37,749 nucleotides of DNA, taken from NCBI GenBank assembly GCA_043812875.1, contig JBDRLS010000115.1:1-37749 (forward strand), written 5' to 3'. This document shows, piece after piece, positions 18,370 to 37,175 of the stretch. The stretch's first letter is position 1; each line of letters starts with the position of its first letter. Made by a program: the position numbers and the translations under genes. Below the pieces are notes generated by a model. It made no database searches and was not told the DNA's origin. It saw only the letters and a list, made by a program, of their open reading frames with translations. The DNA is from Nanobdellota archaeon. GTDB lineage: Archaea; Nanobdellota; Nanobdellia; Woesearchaeales; JAHIVG01.

Positions 18370-19308
18370 ATGCATCTCTTATCATTAGCCGATTGGAAAT
18401 CTGAACAGATCCTGGACATCATCGATGATTCGCTCGAGATCAAGAAGCATCCGGACAAGTACAAGGACTCGATGAAGGACAAGACCTTGCTCATGATCTT
18501 TGAGAAACCAAGTCTTAGGACGAGACTGAGTTTTGAAGCAGGCATGACCCAGATGGGCGGCCATGGAATCTTTTACAGTGTCAAGGATTCGCCGCTCGGC
18601 AAGAAGGAGACCATGCATGACACAGCGAAGACCGCATCAAGATATGTTGACATCATCATGGCACGGCTGAACAAATACAAGGACACCGAAGAGCTTGCCA
18701 TGCACAGCGACGTGCCGGTTATCGACGCGTTGAGTGATGAAGCGCATCCCTGCCAGATCATTGCTGATCTGCAGACGATAAAAGAAAAAAAGGGCAAGCT
18801 TAAAGGCCTCAAGCTTTGCTATCTTGGTGATGCCAACAACAATGTCACCTATTCCATGATGCATGGCACTGCGCTCATGGGCATGGACATGACCATCGGC
18901 TGTCCAAATCATAAAAACCTCATGCCCGACTCCCGATTCATCGAAGAAGCCAAGAAGATTGCAGAGAAAACAGGTGCCTCGCTCACAATATACCATGATG
19001 CGAAGGAAGCGATCACCGACGCTGATGTTGTGTACACAGACTCGTGGATGTCATACCACATATCCTCTGATGAGGAGGCTGAGCGCAAGAGGTTGCTCCT
19101 GCCGTTCCAAGTCGATGGCGCCCTCATGAAGCATGCGCATCCTGAGGCGATCTTCATGAACTGCCTCCCGGCAATAAGGGGATATGAGCAGACCGCGGAA
19201 GTGATCGACGGCCCTCAGAGCGTCGTCTTCGACCAAGCCGAGAACAGATTACACGCTCAGAAAGCGATTATGTTGTATTTATTGAAACATAAATCAGCGA
19301 ATCCGTGA
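18370..19308 (+). CDS. argF: Ornithine-carbamoyltransferase-family transcarbamylase (divergent active-site motifs)
   Basis: FEKPSLRTRLSFE, HPCQ and VVFDQAENRLHAQKAIM match the OTC/ATC fold. However STRTR is SLRTR here, DxxxSMG is DSWMSYH, and HCLP is NCLP. Confidence 0.8.
   Translation: MHLLSLADWKSEQILDIIDDSLEIKKHPDKYKDSMKDKTLLMIFEKPSLRTRLSFEAGMTQMGGHGIFYSVKDSPLGKKETMHDTAKTASRYVDIIMARLNKYKDTEELAMHSDVPVIDALSDEAHPCQIIADLQTIKEKKGKLKGLKLCYLGDANNNVTYSMMHGTALMGMDMTIGCPNHKNLMPDSRFIEEAKKIAEKTGASLTIYHDAKEAITDADVVYTDSWMSYHISSDEEAERKRLLLPFQVDGALMKHAHPEAIFMNCLPAIRGYEQTAEVIDGPQSVVFDQAENRLHAQKAIMLYLLKHKSANP
19255..19286 (+). repeat. 32-nt perfect direct repeat, copy 1 (within the last codons of argF)
   Basis: gctcagaaagcgattatgttgtatttattgaa is identical to 19381-19412. 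Confidence 0.95.
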
Positions 19309-19380: not shown

Positions 19381-19412
19381 GCTCAGAAAGCGATTATGTT
19401 GTATTTATTGAA
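19381..19412 (+). repeat. 32-nt perfect direct repeat, copy 2 (preserves an alternative argF C-terminus AQKAIMLYLLKNK-stop)
   Basis: Identical to 19255-19286. It is followed in the equivalent frame by aag aac aaa tga. Confidence 0.95.
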
Positions 19413-21148: not shown

Positions 21149-22458
21149 CAATGCCAAAACTATGGGATAAAGGAGTAGATGATGAAGAAGTCGAGCAGTA
21201 CTCTGTCTGGGGAGACCATGTCATAGACCAGGCCATGCTTCCTTATGACCTCATCGGCTCAGTTGCGCACGCAAAGGCTATCCACAAGGCGAAGTTCATC
21301 ACCACTGCAGAGCTCAATAAGCTCCTCGTCGGCCTCAAGGATATCTATGCATTATGGAAAAAAGACAAGATCGAGGTAAAGCAAGAACATGAAGACTGCC
21401 ACACCACGATCGAGCTCTATCTGACTGAGAAGTATGGTCAAGTCGGAAAAAAGATCCATGTCGGCCGTTCCCGCAATGACCAAAGCACCTGCATGATCCG
21501 CCTCTATGAAAAGGATATGCTCCTCAAAACAGCGAAGGAATGCATCTCCCTCGTCGAGGTATTGCTCGCATTCTCAAAGAAGCATGAAAAGACGGTCATG
21601 CCTGGTTTCACCCATATGCGCCAAGCCATGCCCTCCAGCTTCGGATTATGGAGCGAGGCATTTGCAGAAGCGCTCCTAAACGACCTAGACATGGTCAAGA
21701 ACGCATTCAAGCTCATCAACCAGAATGCATTGGGTTTCGCAGCCTCGTACGGTACGACTCTTCCCATTGATCGCAATTACACTGCGTCATTGATGGGATT
21801 CCCGAAAGTGATGAATGTCCTTCACGGCGCTAACTCGAGGGGGAAATTCGAGGCTGCAGTCATCCACTCCCTGCATCAGGTCATGTTGACTCTTGGAAGG
21901 ATGGCGGCCATCTTAGCAATGTGGACCATGCCGGAATTCAACTATGTCATCCTCCCAGACAAGTTGACTACAGGCTCCTCGATCATGCCGCAGAAACACA
22001 ATCCTGATGTCTTAGAGATGATGAGAGGCATGTCTGCTCATGTCCAAGGACATTACATTGCTGTCTCGTCGTCAGTGAAAGACCTCTTGTCAGGCTACAA
22101 CAGGGACACCCAGCTCAATAAGATCGGCTTGAAGGACAGCTTCGAGATGACCATCAGCTCACTGAGGATGATGCAGCGCGTAATCAAGGAGATGAAGGTC
22201 GACAAGAAGCGCTGCTGGGATGACTGCCTGCCAGAATTATGGGCGACGCAAGAAGCATACGATCTCGTCAACAAGGGCATGCCTTTCAGGGAGGCCTATC
22301 AGCAGGTCGCGAAGAGCATCGGCCAGGTGAAGAAACCGTCCCATCCAAAAGTGCCTCCATTGAAAACATCTTCATTAAAAAAACAGCTTAAGCAGGAACA
22401 CACCTTACTGGAAAGGGAACTTCAAAAATGGCACAAAGTCAAAGGACTGTTGGAATAG
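21145..22458 (+). CDS. argH: Argininosuccinate lyase
   Basis: Fumarate-lyase signature GSSIMPQKHNPD and an ArgH-like N-terminus LWDKG. Confidence 0.95.
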   Translation: MTMPKLWDKGVDDEEVEQYSVWGDHVIDQAMLPYDLIGSVAHAKAIHKAKFITTAELNKLLVGLKDIYALWKKDKIEVKQEHEDCHTTIELYLTEKYGQVGKKIHVGRSRNDQSTCMIRLYEKDMLLKTAKECISLVEVLLAFSKKHEKTVMPGFTHMRQAMPSSFGLWSEAFAEALLNDLDMVKNAFKLINQNALGFAASYGTTLPIDRNYTASLMGFPKVMNVLHGANSRGKFEAAVIHSLHQVMLTLGRMAAILAMWTMPEFNYVILPDKLTTGSSIMPQKHNPDVLEMMRGMSAHVQGHYIAVSSSVKDLLSGYNRDTQLNKIGLKDSFEMTISSLRMMQRVIKEMKVDKKRCWDDCLPELWATQEAYDLVNKGMPFREAYQQVAKSIGQVKKPSHPKVPPLKTSSLKKQLKQEHTLLERELQKWHKVKGLLE

Positions 22459-22944: not shown

Positions 22945-22958
22945 AAGCTTTATAAATA
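22945..22958 (+). promoter_or_regulatory. BRE/TATA promoter of the initiator tRNA (AAGCTTTATAAATA)
   Basis: The first T of TTTATA (22949) is 33 nt before tRNA position 1 (22982). Confidence 0.6.
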
Positions 22959-22981: not shown

Positions 22982-23115
22982 AGCGGGGTAGGGCAGCCAG
23001 GAGACACCAAAAAGTGCCTAAATGCCCGGAGGGCTCATAAACTCGTTGCGCTGTTAACCTCAGGCGCAAAGTCCGAGGAACCCTCAGGTCGGAGGTTCAA
23101 ATCCTCTCCCCGCTA
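22982..23115 (+). tRNA. Initiator tRNA-Met(CAU) with a canonical 37/38 intron (~40 nt) and an extra ~18-20 nt inside the D loop
   Basis: Acceptor AGCGGGG/CCCCGCT gives an A1:U72 pair, with discriminator A. Anticodon stem GAGGG/CCCTC has three G-C pairs next to the loop CTCATA|A. The T arm GGAGG-TTCAAAT-CCTCT is intact. D stem GGGC (22991-94)/GCCC (23024-27) encloses 29 nt. A T8 run follows. Confidence 0.8.
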
Positions 23116-23144: not shown

Positions 23145-23158
23145 AGCTTTATAAAAAA
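23145..23158 (+). promoter_or_regulatory. BRE/TATA promoter of the LAGLIDADG-like ORF (AGCTTTATAAAAAA)
   Basis: The first T of TTTATA (23148) is 32 nt before ATG 23180. Confidence 0.55.
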
Positions 23159-25961: not shown

Positions 25962-26017
25962 ACGCGATAGTTCCTTCTGTCTTGAGGCCGTCTCGAACCT
26001 ACGGGAATCCTAGAAAG

Positions 26018-26061
26018 CAAATCCTCTCCCCGCTATCTTCCCAATTTTTTCTCTAAAAATT
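26018..26061 (+). repeat. Partial initiator-tRNA 3' end (18 nt) plus flank; reads like an unoccupied copy of the insertion site
   Basis: caaatcctctccccgcta matches 23098-23115. The next 17 nt match 23756-23772, and the last 25 nt match 25552-25575. Confidence 0.9.
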
Positions 26062-34850: not shown

Positions 34851-34866
34851 AAAACCTTTATAAATG
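34851..34866 (+). promoter_or_regulatory. BRE/TATA promoter (AAAACCTTTATAAATG) driving the tRNA-Glu locus
   Basis: The first T of TTTATA (34857) is 32 nt before 34889, the first base of the duplicated tRNA 5' segment. Confidence 0.6.
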
Positions 34867-34888
34867 GATTCTGGTTGCCTTTTCGTAC

Positions 34889-34902
34889 GCCCCGTTGGTG
34901 TA
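34889..34902 (+). repeat. Exact copy of tRNA-Glu positions 1-14 (GCCCCGTTGGTGTA), 97 nt upstream of the tRNA body
   Basis: Identical to 34986-34999 and located at the predicted transcription start. Confidence 0.9.
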
Positions 34903-34985
34903 CCCACGGCCATCTTTTTTCCTCCCTCGCGGTTGGCAAAAAGCTGGACCAAAAAACAGATGTGCGGGTTTCCTGCGGTGTTAAT

Positions 34986-35205
34986 GCCCCGTTGGTGTAG
35001 TCCGGCCAATCATACGGCCCTCTCGACACGAGAAATCCAAGATTTCGTCGGCGAAAGGCCGTGACTCGGGTTCGAACAGCTTTTTCATCCTCGCGGATGA
35101 AAAACCTGGGAAAACAGTTGAACGACCCTGAAGTTCCTCAAGGTCAAGAGGGGTATCTATGATACCCCAGGAATCCCAGAAGCGTCGAAAGTCCCGGACG
35201 GGGCA
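34986..35205 (+). tRNA. tRNA-Glu(CUC) with a canonical 37/38 intron (30 nt) and a 115-nt intron in the T loop (59/60)
   Basis: Acceptor GCCCCGT/ACGGGGC with discriminator A. The D arm GTGT-AGTCCGGCCAA-TCAT is typical of archaeal tRNA-Glu. Anticodon stem CGGCC (35015-19)/GGCCG (35057-61) carries the loop CTCTCG|A. T stem TCGGG (35066-70)/CCCGG (35193-97) has its loop TTCGAA..T split by 35077-35191. A T run follows. Confidence 0.8.
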
Positions 35206-35298
35206 TTTATTTTTTAATAATAGCCTGGATTAATATTGAGTAAGTCAATAAGAAAAGATCATATGCTCTTTTAGATATCAAATTAAACTCTAGAACAA

Positions 35299-35637
35299 TT
35301 AAAACGTGTATCTGCAAGGAGGTGCATTCATTGAAGTCTCTAATGCATCTCCATTGTTTGATGCTAGTCCTTTAGTATATTCTGCGAATTCCAAAATTTG
35401 ATCCCGAGTAAGACCAGCTTCATGATGTGAAGCTTCAGTGAACATGCGGGCAGCAAGTTTATATGAATCCTTTTGACCAGGATCAGCTGATTCATTCGCA
35501 CGCTCTATCAGCTCTAGCGCTTCAATCAGAAATCCTATGGCTTCAGACCCATGATCCCCTTGATCAACATTGCTGACACCAGCAAGAATATTTATTAATG
35601 AAATTCGATGTCCGGGAATGTGTTGTTGATTTACCAT
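35299..35637 (-). CDS. Hypothetical protein (112 aa), AT-rich region
   Basis: GATTTAAATA on the minus strand has its first T 30 nt before ATG 35637. No motif recognised. Confidence 0.5.
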   Translation of the reverse strand: MVNQQHIPGHRISLINILAGVSNVDQGDHGSEAIGFLIEALELIERANESADPGQKDSYKLAARMFTEASHHEAGLTRDQILEFAEYTKGLASNNGDALETSMNAPPCRYTF

Positions 35638-35715
35638 GCAACCTTTAAACCACATCTCCTATTTAAATCTTTCTATTATTTACCACTATTAAGTGGCTAA
35701 TACTTAAAAAGGCGA

Positions 35716-36168
35716 TCACTTCAACAGCGCCACGTCTTCCCCGCCAAACGCCGCGCCATGCAAAGAAAAGTGAGAAGATTCTTGAACTCCGCGGAGTGTC
35801 ACCACGCTGCTCGAATCGAGATGGGCATCGATCCTCGCGACAAGGCTATCCATTTCTGCATCGCTTGCTTCATTTGCCCGCTGGAATGATATGAGATTGC
35901 TCTTGATGATCGGCCTCCCCCCAATGACGCCTTTCCGGAGGGGAATTTCAGTACCATCGCAGAGGTAGAGCATTGCTCCAATTGTGAGTGATTGAATGCT
36001 ATCAGCTTTCACCTCAACCTCTACAGGTCCATTTGAACAAGCAATATCTTTAGGTTGTACTGAGGCATAGAAGTCTGGTGCCGGCACTGGATCAGCTTTC
36101 ATTGCAAAATACCCTAATATAAGAGGGATGAACAATATGCTTTGCCTGGCCCTATACATTAAATCCAT
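35716..36168 (-). CDS. Hypothetical secreted/membrane-anchored protein
   Basis: N-terminal hydrophobic segment SILFIPLILGYFAM. A consensus CCTTTATATAG box (36193-36203, minus strand) lies 33 nt before ATG 36168; the ORF opens with TTG at 36189. Confidence 0.6.
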   Translation of the reverse strand: MDLMYRARQSILFIPLILGYFAMKADPVPAPDFYASVQPKDIACSNGPVEVEVKADSIQSLTIGAMLYLCDGTEIPLRKGVIGGRPIIKSNLISFQRANEASDAEMDSLVARIDAHLDSSSVVTLRGVQESSHFSLHGAAFGGEDVALLK

Positions 36169-36192
36169 GATTGTTCCAGCAATTCTCAATGA

Positions 36193-36203
36193 CTATATAA
36201 AGG
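36193..36203 (-). promoter_or_regulatory. BRE/TATA promoter (CCTTTATATAG on the minus strand)
   Basis: Matches the window consensus and is spaced correctly for ATG 36168. Confidence 0.55.
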
Positions 36204-36319
36204 TATTCCACTTCTGCCCATCCCACCTAAGTAAGTTTTTCACAAATATGGAACATACGTTCCGATAATAAGAGAGAACGCACATTTAATAAAGACCCGA
36301 GATATGAGAACATTCACTT

Positions 36320-36449
36320 GCCACGGTGCGACAATCTGGTACTCGGGTGGTCTCGAAAACCGCTTGGCGCAAGCCTATCTCGGTTCAAACGAGAAACTCT
36401 GTTTCGAGCCCAGAAAAATGGAGTTTTTCTGAATGTCCGGGCCGTGGCG
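36320..36449 (+). tRNA. tRNA-Ser(CGA), class II, with a 46-nt intron in the T loop (59/60)
   Basis: Acceptor GCCACGG/CCGTGGC with discriminator G. Anticodon arm GTGGT-CTCGAAA-ACCGC. 15-nt variable arm containing the hairpin GGC-GCAA-GCC. T stem CTCGG (36379-83)/CCGGG (36437-41) has its loop TTCAAA..T split by 36390-36435. A T6 run follows. Confidence 0.8.
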
Positions 36450-36494
36450 CTTTTTTCACAATTCTTATATAGATACTTATCATTCATGGTTCAG

Positions 36495-37175
36495 ATGATG
36501 CCTGAGAAGCCGTATAGAAATCTGATGAAAGACCTTTTCCTTTACACATTGATTCTTTCATTTCTGAGCTGTGCTTCACAAAAAAAAGTTTATGTTCCGA
36601 TTGAATTTATAAAAGAAGGGGTGCATACATACGCAAACGGGGTGTTTGCGAATTTCCAGCCGAATACATTTCTTGTTGAATTACCTAACTCTGACCTGGA
36701 CCAGACCGTTCGAGGCTTCGACACAAATAACAACGGAATTGTTGATGAGATTGAGATGGATATATCCATCAGCCCCGATGAGACACCCTATAAGGATATT
36801 CAACATATCGTCGTGGAAGCTGAATTTCAAGATGAAAATGGCGACTACATTTTTCTGACGGATTTCAACATAGGCTTACCTGAAATCATTGCATCGGACC
36901 ATACTAAAATCTGCGAATATTTTAAGGCAAGAGTGAATGAATATCAAGAGTATTTCACGAACGCCTATCAAACACAAGAACCGAGAGCCAATGATAGATT
37001 AGAGCATTCCTTGATCATATCGATGATAGACAGAGATGCATTAACCTGGTATTCAGAGTGGACTCCTGGCGGATTGGTTATATCCCCCACCCCCTACAAG
37101 GAAAATAATGAAGCCATTCTTGAATTCGAACACCAACCTGAGCTGAATAAGCTCAATTCTCCAGAGAAGAAGTGA
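36495..37175 (+). CDS. Lipoprotein-like secreted protein, function unknown
   Basis: Lipobox-like LILSFLSC. CTTATATAG lies about 30 nt before ATG 36495, with alternative ATGs at 36486 and 36498. The long ORF from 36318 runs through the tRNA-Ser gene, so that part is discounted. Confidence 0.7.
   Translation: MMPEKPYRNLMKDLFLYTLILSFLSCASQKKVYVPIEFIKEGVHTYANGVFANFQPNTFLVELPNSDLDQTVRGFDTNNNGIVDEIEMDISISPDETPYKDIQHIVVEAEFQDENGDYIFLTDFNIGLPEIIASDHTKICEYFKARVNEYQEYFTNAYQTQEPRANDRLEHSLIISMIDRDALTWYSEWTPGGLVISPTPYKENNEAILEFEHQPELNKLNSPEKK

Follow-up and report, generated by a model that had tools for sequence, protein, structure and literature searches.

An exact duplicate of the tRNA-Glu(CUC) gene start and intron-related sequence upstream of an archaeal tRNA gene: a possible insertion scar carried as a 5' leader

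In a Nanobdellota archaeon (GTDB lineage Archaea; Nanobdellota; Nanobdellia; Woesearchaeales; JAHIVG01), the tRNA-Glu(CUC) gene is preceded by an exact second copy of its own first 14 nucleotides, and the 83 nt that separate the two copies belong to a sequence family that is also represented in a genuine intron of the same gene. The gene lies on contig JBDRLS010000115.1 of assembly GCA_043812875.1, of which the stretch analysed here, positions 1 to 37,749 of the forward strand, is referred to as the window. The arrangement can be read as the scar left where an insertion duplicated the start of the tRNA gene, which would now be carried as a 5' leader and most likely not as a third intron; we regard this account as an even prospect. 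The evidence that bears on it, and on the explanations that compete with it, is the subject of this report.

The duplication that had been claimed in a preliminary description of the locus was confirmed by a direct-repeat scan: GCCCCGTTGGTGTA is present exactly twice, at 34889-34902 (copy 1) and at 34986-34999 (copy 2), the latter corresponding to positions 1-14 of the tRNA-Glu(CUC) gene. Exact direct repeats of at least 12 nt within 200 nt of each other are found only twice in the whole window, and this pair is one of them. Copy 2 opens the first of three exons on the forward strand (34986-35025, positions 1-37), which is followed by a 30-nt anticodon-loop intron between positions 37 and 38 (35026-35055) that displays a relaxed bulge-helix-bulge (BHB) motif with a central helix of 3/4 and an outer helix of 7 bp. 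The second exon (35056-35076, positions 38-59) leads into a 115-nt T-loop intron between positions 59 and 60 (35077-35191), whose BHB motif has a 4/4 central helix (TTCG/CGAA) and a 5-bp outer helix, and the gene ends with a third exon (35192-35205, positions 60-73) and a run of six T (T6) at 35210-35215, the presumed terminator. Neither ARAGORN, used with and without intron mode, nor Rfam, at the gathering threshold and at E<=1, reported a tRNA on the raw window DNA, since the introns interrupt the gene; once 35026-35055 and 35077-35191 had been removed by hand, the 75-nt spliced product was accepted by ARAGORN as tRNA-Glu(CUC) with a normal cloverleaf. The 3' end of the T-loop intron was also considered as a duplicate of the T-loop, and this candidate was discarded: the resemblance follows from the TTCGAA palindrome, and introns in TTCAAA loops end in TGAAAG.

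Upstream of copy 1 lies an archaeal promoter (34851-34865, forward strand) that consists of an A-rich AAAACC motif resembling a B recognition element and of a TATA box, TTTATAAAT, whose first T at 34857 is situated 32 nt before 34889. When 12 other promoters of the contig were used to build a weight matrix, with the 34857 site held out, this site scored 17.9 bits, compared to 14-19 bits for the training sites, while the best site within 34895-34975 reached only 2.0 bits, so that no promoter can be recognised for the intact gene itself. The earlier assertions that this is the only promoter at the locus, and that the intact copy lacks a TATA box, are thus borne out; the statement that the same spacing exists at the initiator tRNA is accurate to within 1 nt, the distance there being 33 nt (first T at 22949, position 1 at 22982) and not 32. 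In addition, TTTAWAWA is found 26-36 nt, and mostly 30-33 nt (counted from the first T), upstream of the ATG of 11 open reading frames (ORFs) of the contig, as illustrated by the pairs of TATA box and start codon at 23148 and 23180, 25574 and 25605, and 29144 and 29174. Given this spacing at ORF starts and at the initiator tRNA, most mRNAs of the organism appear to be leaderless, and mRNAs and tRNAs alike are close to leaderless. If the 30-32 nt that separate the first T of the TATA box from the apparently leaderless ORFs also apply to tRNA-Glu(CUC), transcription is predicted to begin at 34887-34889, that is, on copy 1.

The spacer between the two copies is clearly related to the T-loop intron. 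Positions 34916-34962 align with 35081-35120 with 35 of 40 aligned pairs identical and three gaps (7 gap positions), giving a score of 32 that was reached by none of 2000 shuffles and none of 1236 contig tiles, and softer gap penalties raise the score to 39 (0 of 2000 shuffles). The degree of identity agrees with the roughly three quarters that had been estimated by eye between the spacer and the start of the intron, but the similarity is limited to the first ~45 nt of an intron that spans the full 115 nt of 35077-35191. In both regions the sequence folds into a hairpin, T-rich in its 5' arm and A-rich in its 3' arm, and AAAACAG(A/T)TG comes next; in the spacer the hairpin occupies 34910-34947 (inverted repeat I4, with 13-nt arms that are 85% complementary), and its homologues are inverted repeat I1 of the T-loop intron and a hairpin in the leader of a related locus, L003. 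The related loci were collected by scanning one genome per species with the first 24 nt of the tRNA, which returned 50 loci whose tRNA 5' end is invariant owing to the search pattern.

These similarities led to the definition, within this analysis, of a module that comprises a run of four to six T, a variable hairpin top, AAAA(C/G)CTGG, 0-3 nt and a run of A. Seven full matches were found in the 0.46 Mb searched, where by our own estimate chance would produce well below one: the window leader, the window T-loop intron, the L003 leader, two L003 tRNA trailers in which the module sits directly 3' of two other tRNA genes, the T-loop intron of L011, and an intron in the 16S rRNA gene of L018. Members of the family are related to each other with pairwise z-scores of 6-11. 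The L003 leader matches the window leader with a score of 25 (1 of 3000 shuffles), and is closer to the window T-loop intron (score 37, 0 of 3000), while the conserved motif GCAAAAAGCTGGACCAAAAAACAGATGTGC of the window leader (34936-34965) is shared with the 5' part of the L018 intron at 27 of 30 aligned bases (score 35, 0 of 3000). According to Rfam, L018 4322-5934 is a complete 16S rRNA with ~135 extra nt, and the module is carried at the 5' end of the intron that these represent. The intron itself, at L018 5050-5194, is inserted between GGATTAGAT and ACCC and has a clean BHB motif (central helix TTAG/CTAA, inner helix CACC/GGTG). The module was thus found beyond the locus, in L003, L011 and L018, but is absent from all other introns of the window contig. 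When viral contigs were scanned, the conserved module motif gave no match and the 14-mer gave 120 random matches in coding sequences, none of them related to tRNA, so that a viral origin of the insert is unsupported; terminal inverted repeats, looked for by eye in the inserts, were not seen.

The leader can be divided into several elements. Directly 3' of copy 1, CCACGG (34904-34909) pairs with copy 1 positions 4-10 in a small hairpin that is predicted by RNAfold at -6.2 kcal/mol in the window and at -6.8 kcal/mol in L003, where the motif is kept; it may be a remnant of a 3' acceptor strand. It is followed by a T6 run (34915-34920), equal in length to the one after the tRNA, which could serve as a partial terminator or attenuator. 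Furthermore, positions 34959-34990, which span the leader's 3' part and the beginning of copy 2, are complementary to positions 35150-35186 of the T-loop intron; the duplex energy of -41.4 kcal/mol was reached in only one of 1000 shuffles and in none of 743 contig tiles. This complementarity may follow from the homology of the leader to the strand that is the usual pairing partner of 35150-35186 within the intron. When the whole precursor is folded to minimum energy, the 3' acceptor strand is taken up by copy 1, and the fold in which copy 2 is forced into this position is 6.7 kcal/mol less stable; on this folding model, copy 1 is a potential competitor for the acceptor strand and not a splice partner. 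A comparison with Rfam matched the window leader to no known RNA family. The stretch 34903-34925 weakly resembles the gene's own 3' end and trailer (CCC..ACGG..CAT..TTTTTT; 40 of 5000 shuffles), a resemblance that is not significant in L003. A proposed likeness of 34906-34915 to tRNA positions 26-35 was dropped as weak (178 of 5000 shuffles).

The related loci allow this layout to be compared across the group. At most tRNA-Glu loci the TATA box lies 32-35 nt before position 1 and there is no leader, and some tRNA-Glu genes are situated only 3-12 nt after a preceding tRNA gene, which implies endonucleolytic processing of 5' ends in the group. It is of note that at L007 the normal distance for a TATA box, 32 nt before the first position of tRNA-Glu, is occupied by the T-loop TTCAAAT of the preceding tRNA; we would speculate that in tightly packed tRNA clusters the T-loop might double as TATA box. 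An upstream copy of the gene's own 5' end was found in 4 of the 51 tRNA-Glu genes with this acceptor stem (the window, L003, L011 and L050) and in one other tRNA (L025), while random 11-mers drawn from the loci have a direct copy within 200 nt in 79 of 20,000 cases (0.4%).

The closest counterpart is the tRNA-Glu(CUC) gene of L003, in which the copy is located at -101 and GCCCCGTTGGTGTAG is followed by CCACGGC, a T-run, a hairpin and AAAAACCTGGGAAAA, so that positions 1-15 are separated by 86 nt from positions 1-15 of the complete gene. At the neighbouring paralogue, tRNA-Glu(UUC), the homologous upstream region runs straight into position 1, and by sequence comparison the two genes present the pattern expected of a filled site next to an empty site. 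The same sequence in the same arrangement exists in L053, a separately assembled JGI contig, which was the only return of a metagenome scan with copy 1 and the junction. The region in question (L003 6100-7050, minus strand) consists of two paralogous intergenic units of ~220 nt, one before each tRNA-Glu gene, that share the module, a conserved hairpin (GTGGTATTTC..GAAAYRCCAC) and a promoter-like TTTTAAAAACC, the leader insertion being confined to the CUC copy.

A second leader type is found upstream of the tRNA-Glu(UUC) genes of L011 (4107-4159) and L050 (2972-3023), with 13-nt copies at -53 and -52, respectively, and spacers of 39-40 nt. In both, copy 1 supplies the 5' strand of a hairpin of ~15 bp; the inner stem has changed in sequence between the two loci but is still paired, and the hairpin is followed by a conserved CTCAACGG(T/A)AG, of which CTCAACGG is complementary to tRNA positions 4-10; CCACGG, directly 3' of copy 1 in the window and L003 and pairing with the same positions, is a shorter version of this feature. 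In L025, which concerns a different tRNA, positions 1-21 are copied with two mismatches 96 nt upstream, and a TATA box lies 35 nt before the copy. The spacers of L011, L050 and L025 do not resemble the introns of their own genes.

These observations, that is, the duplicate, its recurrence, the family relationships of the spacer and the filled and empty sites of L003, support the following sequence of events. Approximately 97 bp would have been inserted at the tRNA-Glu(CUC) gene, comprising 83 nt of intron-family sequence and a second copy of positions 1-14, in such a way that the original gene start, now copy 1, kept its native, near-leaderless distance from the promoter and a complete gene was reconstituted 97 nt downstream. 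The mutational route could have been recombination with an element or allele that contained intron sequence, along the lines of the Caldiarchaeum model discussed below, template switching at hairpins, or collapse of a tandem copy. Transcripts that begin on copy 1 would fold this copy with the adjacent CCACGG, and the module into a separate hairpin; a fraction would stop at the T6 run, and the RNA that reads through would carry the whole tRNA with its two true introns, both of which would be excised at their BHB motifs by the splicing endonuclease. As the leader has no BHB motif, an RNase P-type 5'-end endonuclease would be required, which is predicted to cut at 34985/34986. The locus offers what a leader of this kind calls for, namely sequence upstream of position 1 that is transcribed if the predicted start is correct, with no promoter-like site in between. 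It also resembles attL/attR-type integration in that 14 nt of a tRNA terminus are exactly repeated, the intact gene being on the inner side, but no integrase was recognised: the 83-nt insert has no ORF, and the neighbouring ORFs have either no Pfam hit or matches to NUDIX or SMC.

The preliminary description had offered three options for the 97 nt. A leader of ~97 nt trimmed by RNase P now appears to be the default, based on the promoter evidence and on the failure of the intron option, which is taken up below. The third, a relic of a mobile intron, finds support once it is modified, in that sequences of the spacer family do occur in introns and the duplicated gene end resembles a footprint, but the module is absent from the other introns of the contig. 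An extension of this idea, which we consider tentative and on balance doubtful, is that a small, duplicative intron-family module lands in tRNA and rRNA genes with duplication of 13-19 nt of the gene end (here 14 nt); where a BHB motif can form, as in the T-loop and in 16S rRNA, it would be spliced and kept as an intron, and elsewhere it would survive as a leader or trailer next to a duplicated terminal exon. The leader described here would then be a stage of intron spread caught in the act, and the widespread 5' and 3' duplications of Woesearchaeota-type tRNAs would be its footprints.

Several points weigh against the insertion scar. Neither the window nor 128 kb of related loci gave an Rfam match to RNase P RNA, and Nanoarchaeum equitans, which is reported to lack RNase P, is said to show a fixed spacing between promoter and tRNA similar to the one seen here. 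Copy 1 is 100% identical to the gene start, and copy 1 and CCACGG are kept in both the window and L003 while most of the spacer has diverged, which, at the level of sequence, hints at selection rather than at a neutral scar; a neutral relic that out-competes copy 2 for the acceptor strand by ~6.7 kcal/mol should have decayed. Some of the transcripts would be expected to end at the T6 run, searches gave no recombinase, no terminal inverted repeats and no viral equivalent of the insert, and this leader type has a single independent homologue (n=1).

Part of this evidence is precisely what would be expected if the leader were a selected, functional RNA, which we consider the main rival, albeit an unlikely one. 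The acceptor-like hairpin, module hairpin and T-run would then tune the expression of tRNA-Glu(CUC), either by attenuation at T6 or by competition for the acceptor strand, or serve as a signal for processing or stability of the precursor. Such a role would be consistent with the exactness of copy 1, counted as exact in all five cases although the L025 copy has two mismatches, and with the fact that the leader T6 equals the gene's own terminator in length. It also fits the elements shared by the window and L003 (copy 1, CCACGG, the T-run and AAAAASCTGG, with the hairpin top and the rest diverged) and those shared by L011 and L050 (the 13-nt copy, the ~15-bp hairpin with its changed but paired inner stem, and CTCAACGG). 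However, each leader type is represented by only two sequences, a number at which covariation is not statistically assessable, the tRNA 5' end is held invariant in all loci by the search pattern itself, 47 of the 51 tRNA-Glu genes of the group do without such a leader, and the leader has no match to a known family.

A somewhat weaker contender holds that copy 1 is a dead remnant that gives rise to a transcript of ~30 nt ending at T6, and that the tRNA is expressed from a promoter within the spacer that escaped recognition, for example the A-rich box ACCAAAAAACAG ~34 nt before 34986, which does lie at the right distance. The T6 run 12 nt after copy 1 suits this possibility, as does the position of the module in L003, where it also follows two other tRNA genes; the weak likeness between the sequence downstream of copy 1 and the 3' end and trailer of the gene itself would also fit an upstream copy that collapsed together with its own terminator. 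Nevertheless, the best promoter score in the spacer, at 2.0 bits, is far from the 14-19 bits of real promoters, the 39-40-nt spacers of L011 and L050 have no TATA-like site and yet their genes look intact, and the 3'-end similarity loses its significance in L003. The collapsed upstream tRNA copy was consequently rejected as an explanation in its own right, and is retained only as a sub-hypothesis.

That the 97 nt are a third intron, with copy 1 as the true 5' exon, would be required if the lineage had no RNase P, and we judge it very improbable. Four nucleotides before the 5' bulge of a BHB motif pair with four nucleotides before the 3' bulge. A splice between direct repeats therefore needs a self-complementary 4-mer, because both 4-nt arms are the same sequence, and no 4-mer in positions 1-14 is self-complementary. 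A script in which the motif is defined as two 3-nt bulges on either side of a 4-bp helix, the cut falling after the second base of the bulge, finds the T-loop intron (4/4 central, 5-bp outer helix) and, in relaxed form, the anticodon intron (3/4, 7 bp). Applied around the two copies, it gave no motif, relaxed variants included, in the registers k=0..15 that join copy 1 to the gene, where four G.U pairs with no flanking helices were the best result, no motif that places a cut at 34985/34986, and a single weak out-of-register candidate (34905/35001) that is half G.U, lengthens the D-loop and is lost in the L003 leader (GTAG for GTAC). The proposal of a third intron whose insertion duplicated the exon is thus unsupported, as the BHB motif that had been suggested as a check around the copies was not found. 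Moreover, copy 2 is complete, to an extent that splicing would not call for. What speaks for such an intron is that the start is predicted exactly on copy 1, as for the initiator tRNA and most tRNA-Glu genes of the group, that copy 1 pairs with the 3' acceptor strand in the minimum-energy fold, that removal of 97 nt in register would leave the mature tRNA unchanged, and that relaxed motifs are reportedly accepted by DPANN splicing endonucleases (PMC5829648); simple 5' trimming, however, gives the identical 75-nt tRNA, so that the product does not tell the two routes apart. An assembly artefact of the metagenome-assembled contig can be given next to no weight: several duplications at the comparison loci (L003 Ala, L007 Glu/Val, L033 Ser) are indeed scaffold-gap artefacts around runs of N, but there is no such run here, 14 nt is below the k-mer length of assemblers, so that such a repeat cannot produce a mis-join, and the homologous arrangement of L003 is reproduced in the separately assembled L053.

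The insertion scar may be compared with systems that are already known. Nanoarchaeum equitans reportedly has leaderless tRNAs, and the fixed distance of the TATA box, with a start within ~2 nt of position 1, is a likeness that applies to the initiator tRNA and to most tRNA-Glu genes of the relatives; unlike in that organism, the fixed distance at tRNA-Glu(CUC) points to the duplicate, and tRNA genes 3-12 nt apart in the relatives need endonucleolytic 5' processing. The closest described case is that of SSV1- and pNOB8-type integration together with the tRNA-Thr of Caldiarchaeum subterraneum, where a 5' fragment lies 1.8 kb upstream of an intact, newly intron-bearing tRNA-Thr and where integration of an element was proposed as a route of intron gain (Sugahara et al. 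2012, PMC3293823). The likeness lies in the direct repeat of a tRNA terminus that flanks an insert; in contrast, the insert here measures 83 nt (39-86 nt in the other cases), has no recombinase or ORF and no att-like symmetry or terminal inverted repeats, consists of intron-family sequence and would be transcribed as a leader, and the fragment retains the only promoter that the gene has.

Intron transposition in Thermoproteales, in which similar introns occur at different positions through a mechanism described as unknown (Fujishima et al. 2010, as summarised in PMC4090602), offers another parallel, since similar sequences are found here in a T-loop intron that is a genuine intron at 59/60, in a 5' leader and in the 16S rRNA intron of another genome. 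Unlike those introns, to judge by that summary, the leader copy lies outside the mature tRNA, has no BHB motif and is flanked by an exon duplication of which the summary gives no instance. As in the split and permuted tRNA genes of N. equitans, Caldivirga and Thermofilum, to the extent that these are outlined in PMC3218864 and PMC4033280, a 5' piece is followed by sequence complementary to that preceding a 3' piece (34959-34990 versus 35150-35186), but a complete, contiguous gene lies in between, with only two ordinary introns to remove and no junction BHB. Finally, DPANN splicing endonucleases with an extra loop have been associated with heavily disrupted tRNA genes (PMC5829648), and tRNAs with multiple introns are therefore expected in this lineage. 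A literature search retrieved no description of this short leader and trailer architecture, which is not proof that none exists, and a search on RNase P in Woesearchaeota and DPANN archaea yielded nothing specific.

Mirror-image duplications were observed at the other end of tRNA genes. At several loci (L014 Ile and Glu, L040, L042, L007 Gly, L048 Gly, L051 Ala and L033 Ser), an intact tRNA gene is followed, 49-130 nt downstream, by a copy of its own last 11-19 nt; the corresponding coordinates include L014 4053-4170 and 7028-7150, L040 4087-4190, L048 3931-3995 and L033 6669-6735. The spacers are often related between different tRNAs (L014 Ile versus L014 Glu, z=25; L014 Ile versus L007 Gly, z=8) and often hold a stretch complementary to the T-arm, which in one family reads GGRATTTGAAC, while another family has a hairpin, CGAGAATC-NNN-GATTCTCG, like those of anticodon introns. 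Apparent duplications at L003 Ala, at L007 Glu and Val, and upstream of L033 Ser were set aside as scaffold-gap artefacts, having identical ends around runs of N.

The second close repeat of the contig is an exact 32-nt pair (19255-19286 and 19381-19412) around a structured 94-nt insert; it duplicates the last 11 codons of the ORF 18370-19308, which thereby has a new C-terminal tail, KHKSANP instead of KNK, and the insert has no sequence similarity to that of the tRNA-Glu leader. Located at the 3' end of this ORF, it is another insertion that duplicated a gene terminus and, like the 3' copies at the related loci, it counts in favour of the insertion scar. The initiator tRNA (22982-23115) has two introns, in the D-loop and the anticodon region, and is recognised by ARAGORN only once these have been taken out by hand. 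An exact copy of its last ~19 nt (CAAATCCTCTCCCCGCTAT) lies 2.9 kb downstream, at 26017-26035; an integrated element was considered there and rejected, as the 2.9 kb hold an Na+/H+ exchanger that is syntenic with relatives, two ORFs without Pfam match and no integrase. A third intron-containing tRNA, at 207-325, is called Ile(GAU) by ARAGORN after two segments have been removed by hand; position 37 is a G, which is unusual, and the variable region holds an 18-nt hairpin. Its anticodon arm and this hairpin are copied over ~33 nt, at ~85% identity, 107 nt upstream at 128-160, with the loop TTGAAAA (GAA anticodon) in the copy. A sub-threshold match to the C/D-box sRNA sR47 (21257-21333, minus strand; 21.4 bits, E=0.6) lies inside an ORF and is probably due to chance.

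The tRNA-Glu(CUC) gene is adjoined upstream by an SMC gene whose near homologues all come from metagenome-assembled genomes of Woesearchaeota or Nanoarchaeia. Gene order upstream of SMC is common to the window and the nearest relative, L001, and breaks directly after SMC, where tRNA-Glu sits; in comparison with both L001 and L002, it is kept as far as the SMC stop codon and breaks exactly at the tRNA-Glu locus. Nothing tRNA-like was found after SMC in these two nearest relatives, and the ORFs downstream of tRNA-Glu in the window (35299-37175) are without Pfam match.

The locus is a variant of two known themes, the direct repeats formed by tRNA fragments and the disrupted tRNA genes of archaea. 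On the gain and movement of archaeal tRNA and rRNA introns, the one model at population level invokes integrating elements of kilobase size (PMC3293823). Here, intron-family sequence is found beyond the mature tRNA, between two exact copies of the gene start, and its paralogue is a genuine T-loop intron of the same gene; together with its recurrence in relatives, the locus provides a concrete footprint at the sequence level with which models of intron gain can be tested. All three tRNA genes of the contig escape tRNA finders, and the recurring layout may show how archaeal tRNA genes become disrupted. A 97-nt leader amid tRNAs that are otherwise close to leaderless would, in addition, lead to a clear prediction regarding an RNase P-type activity in this lineage.

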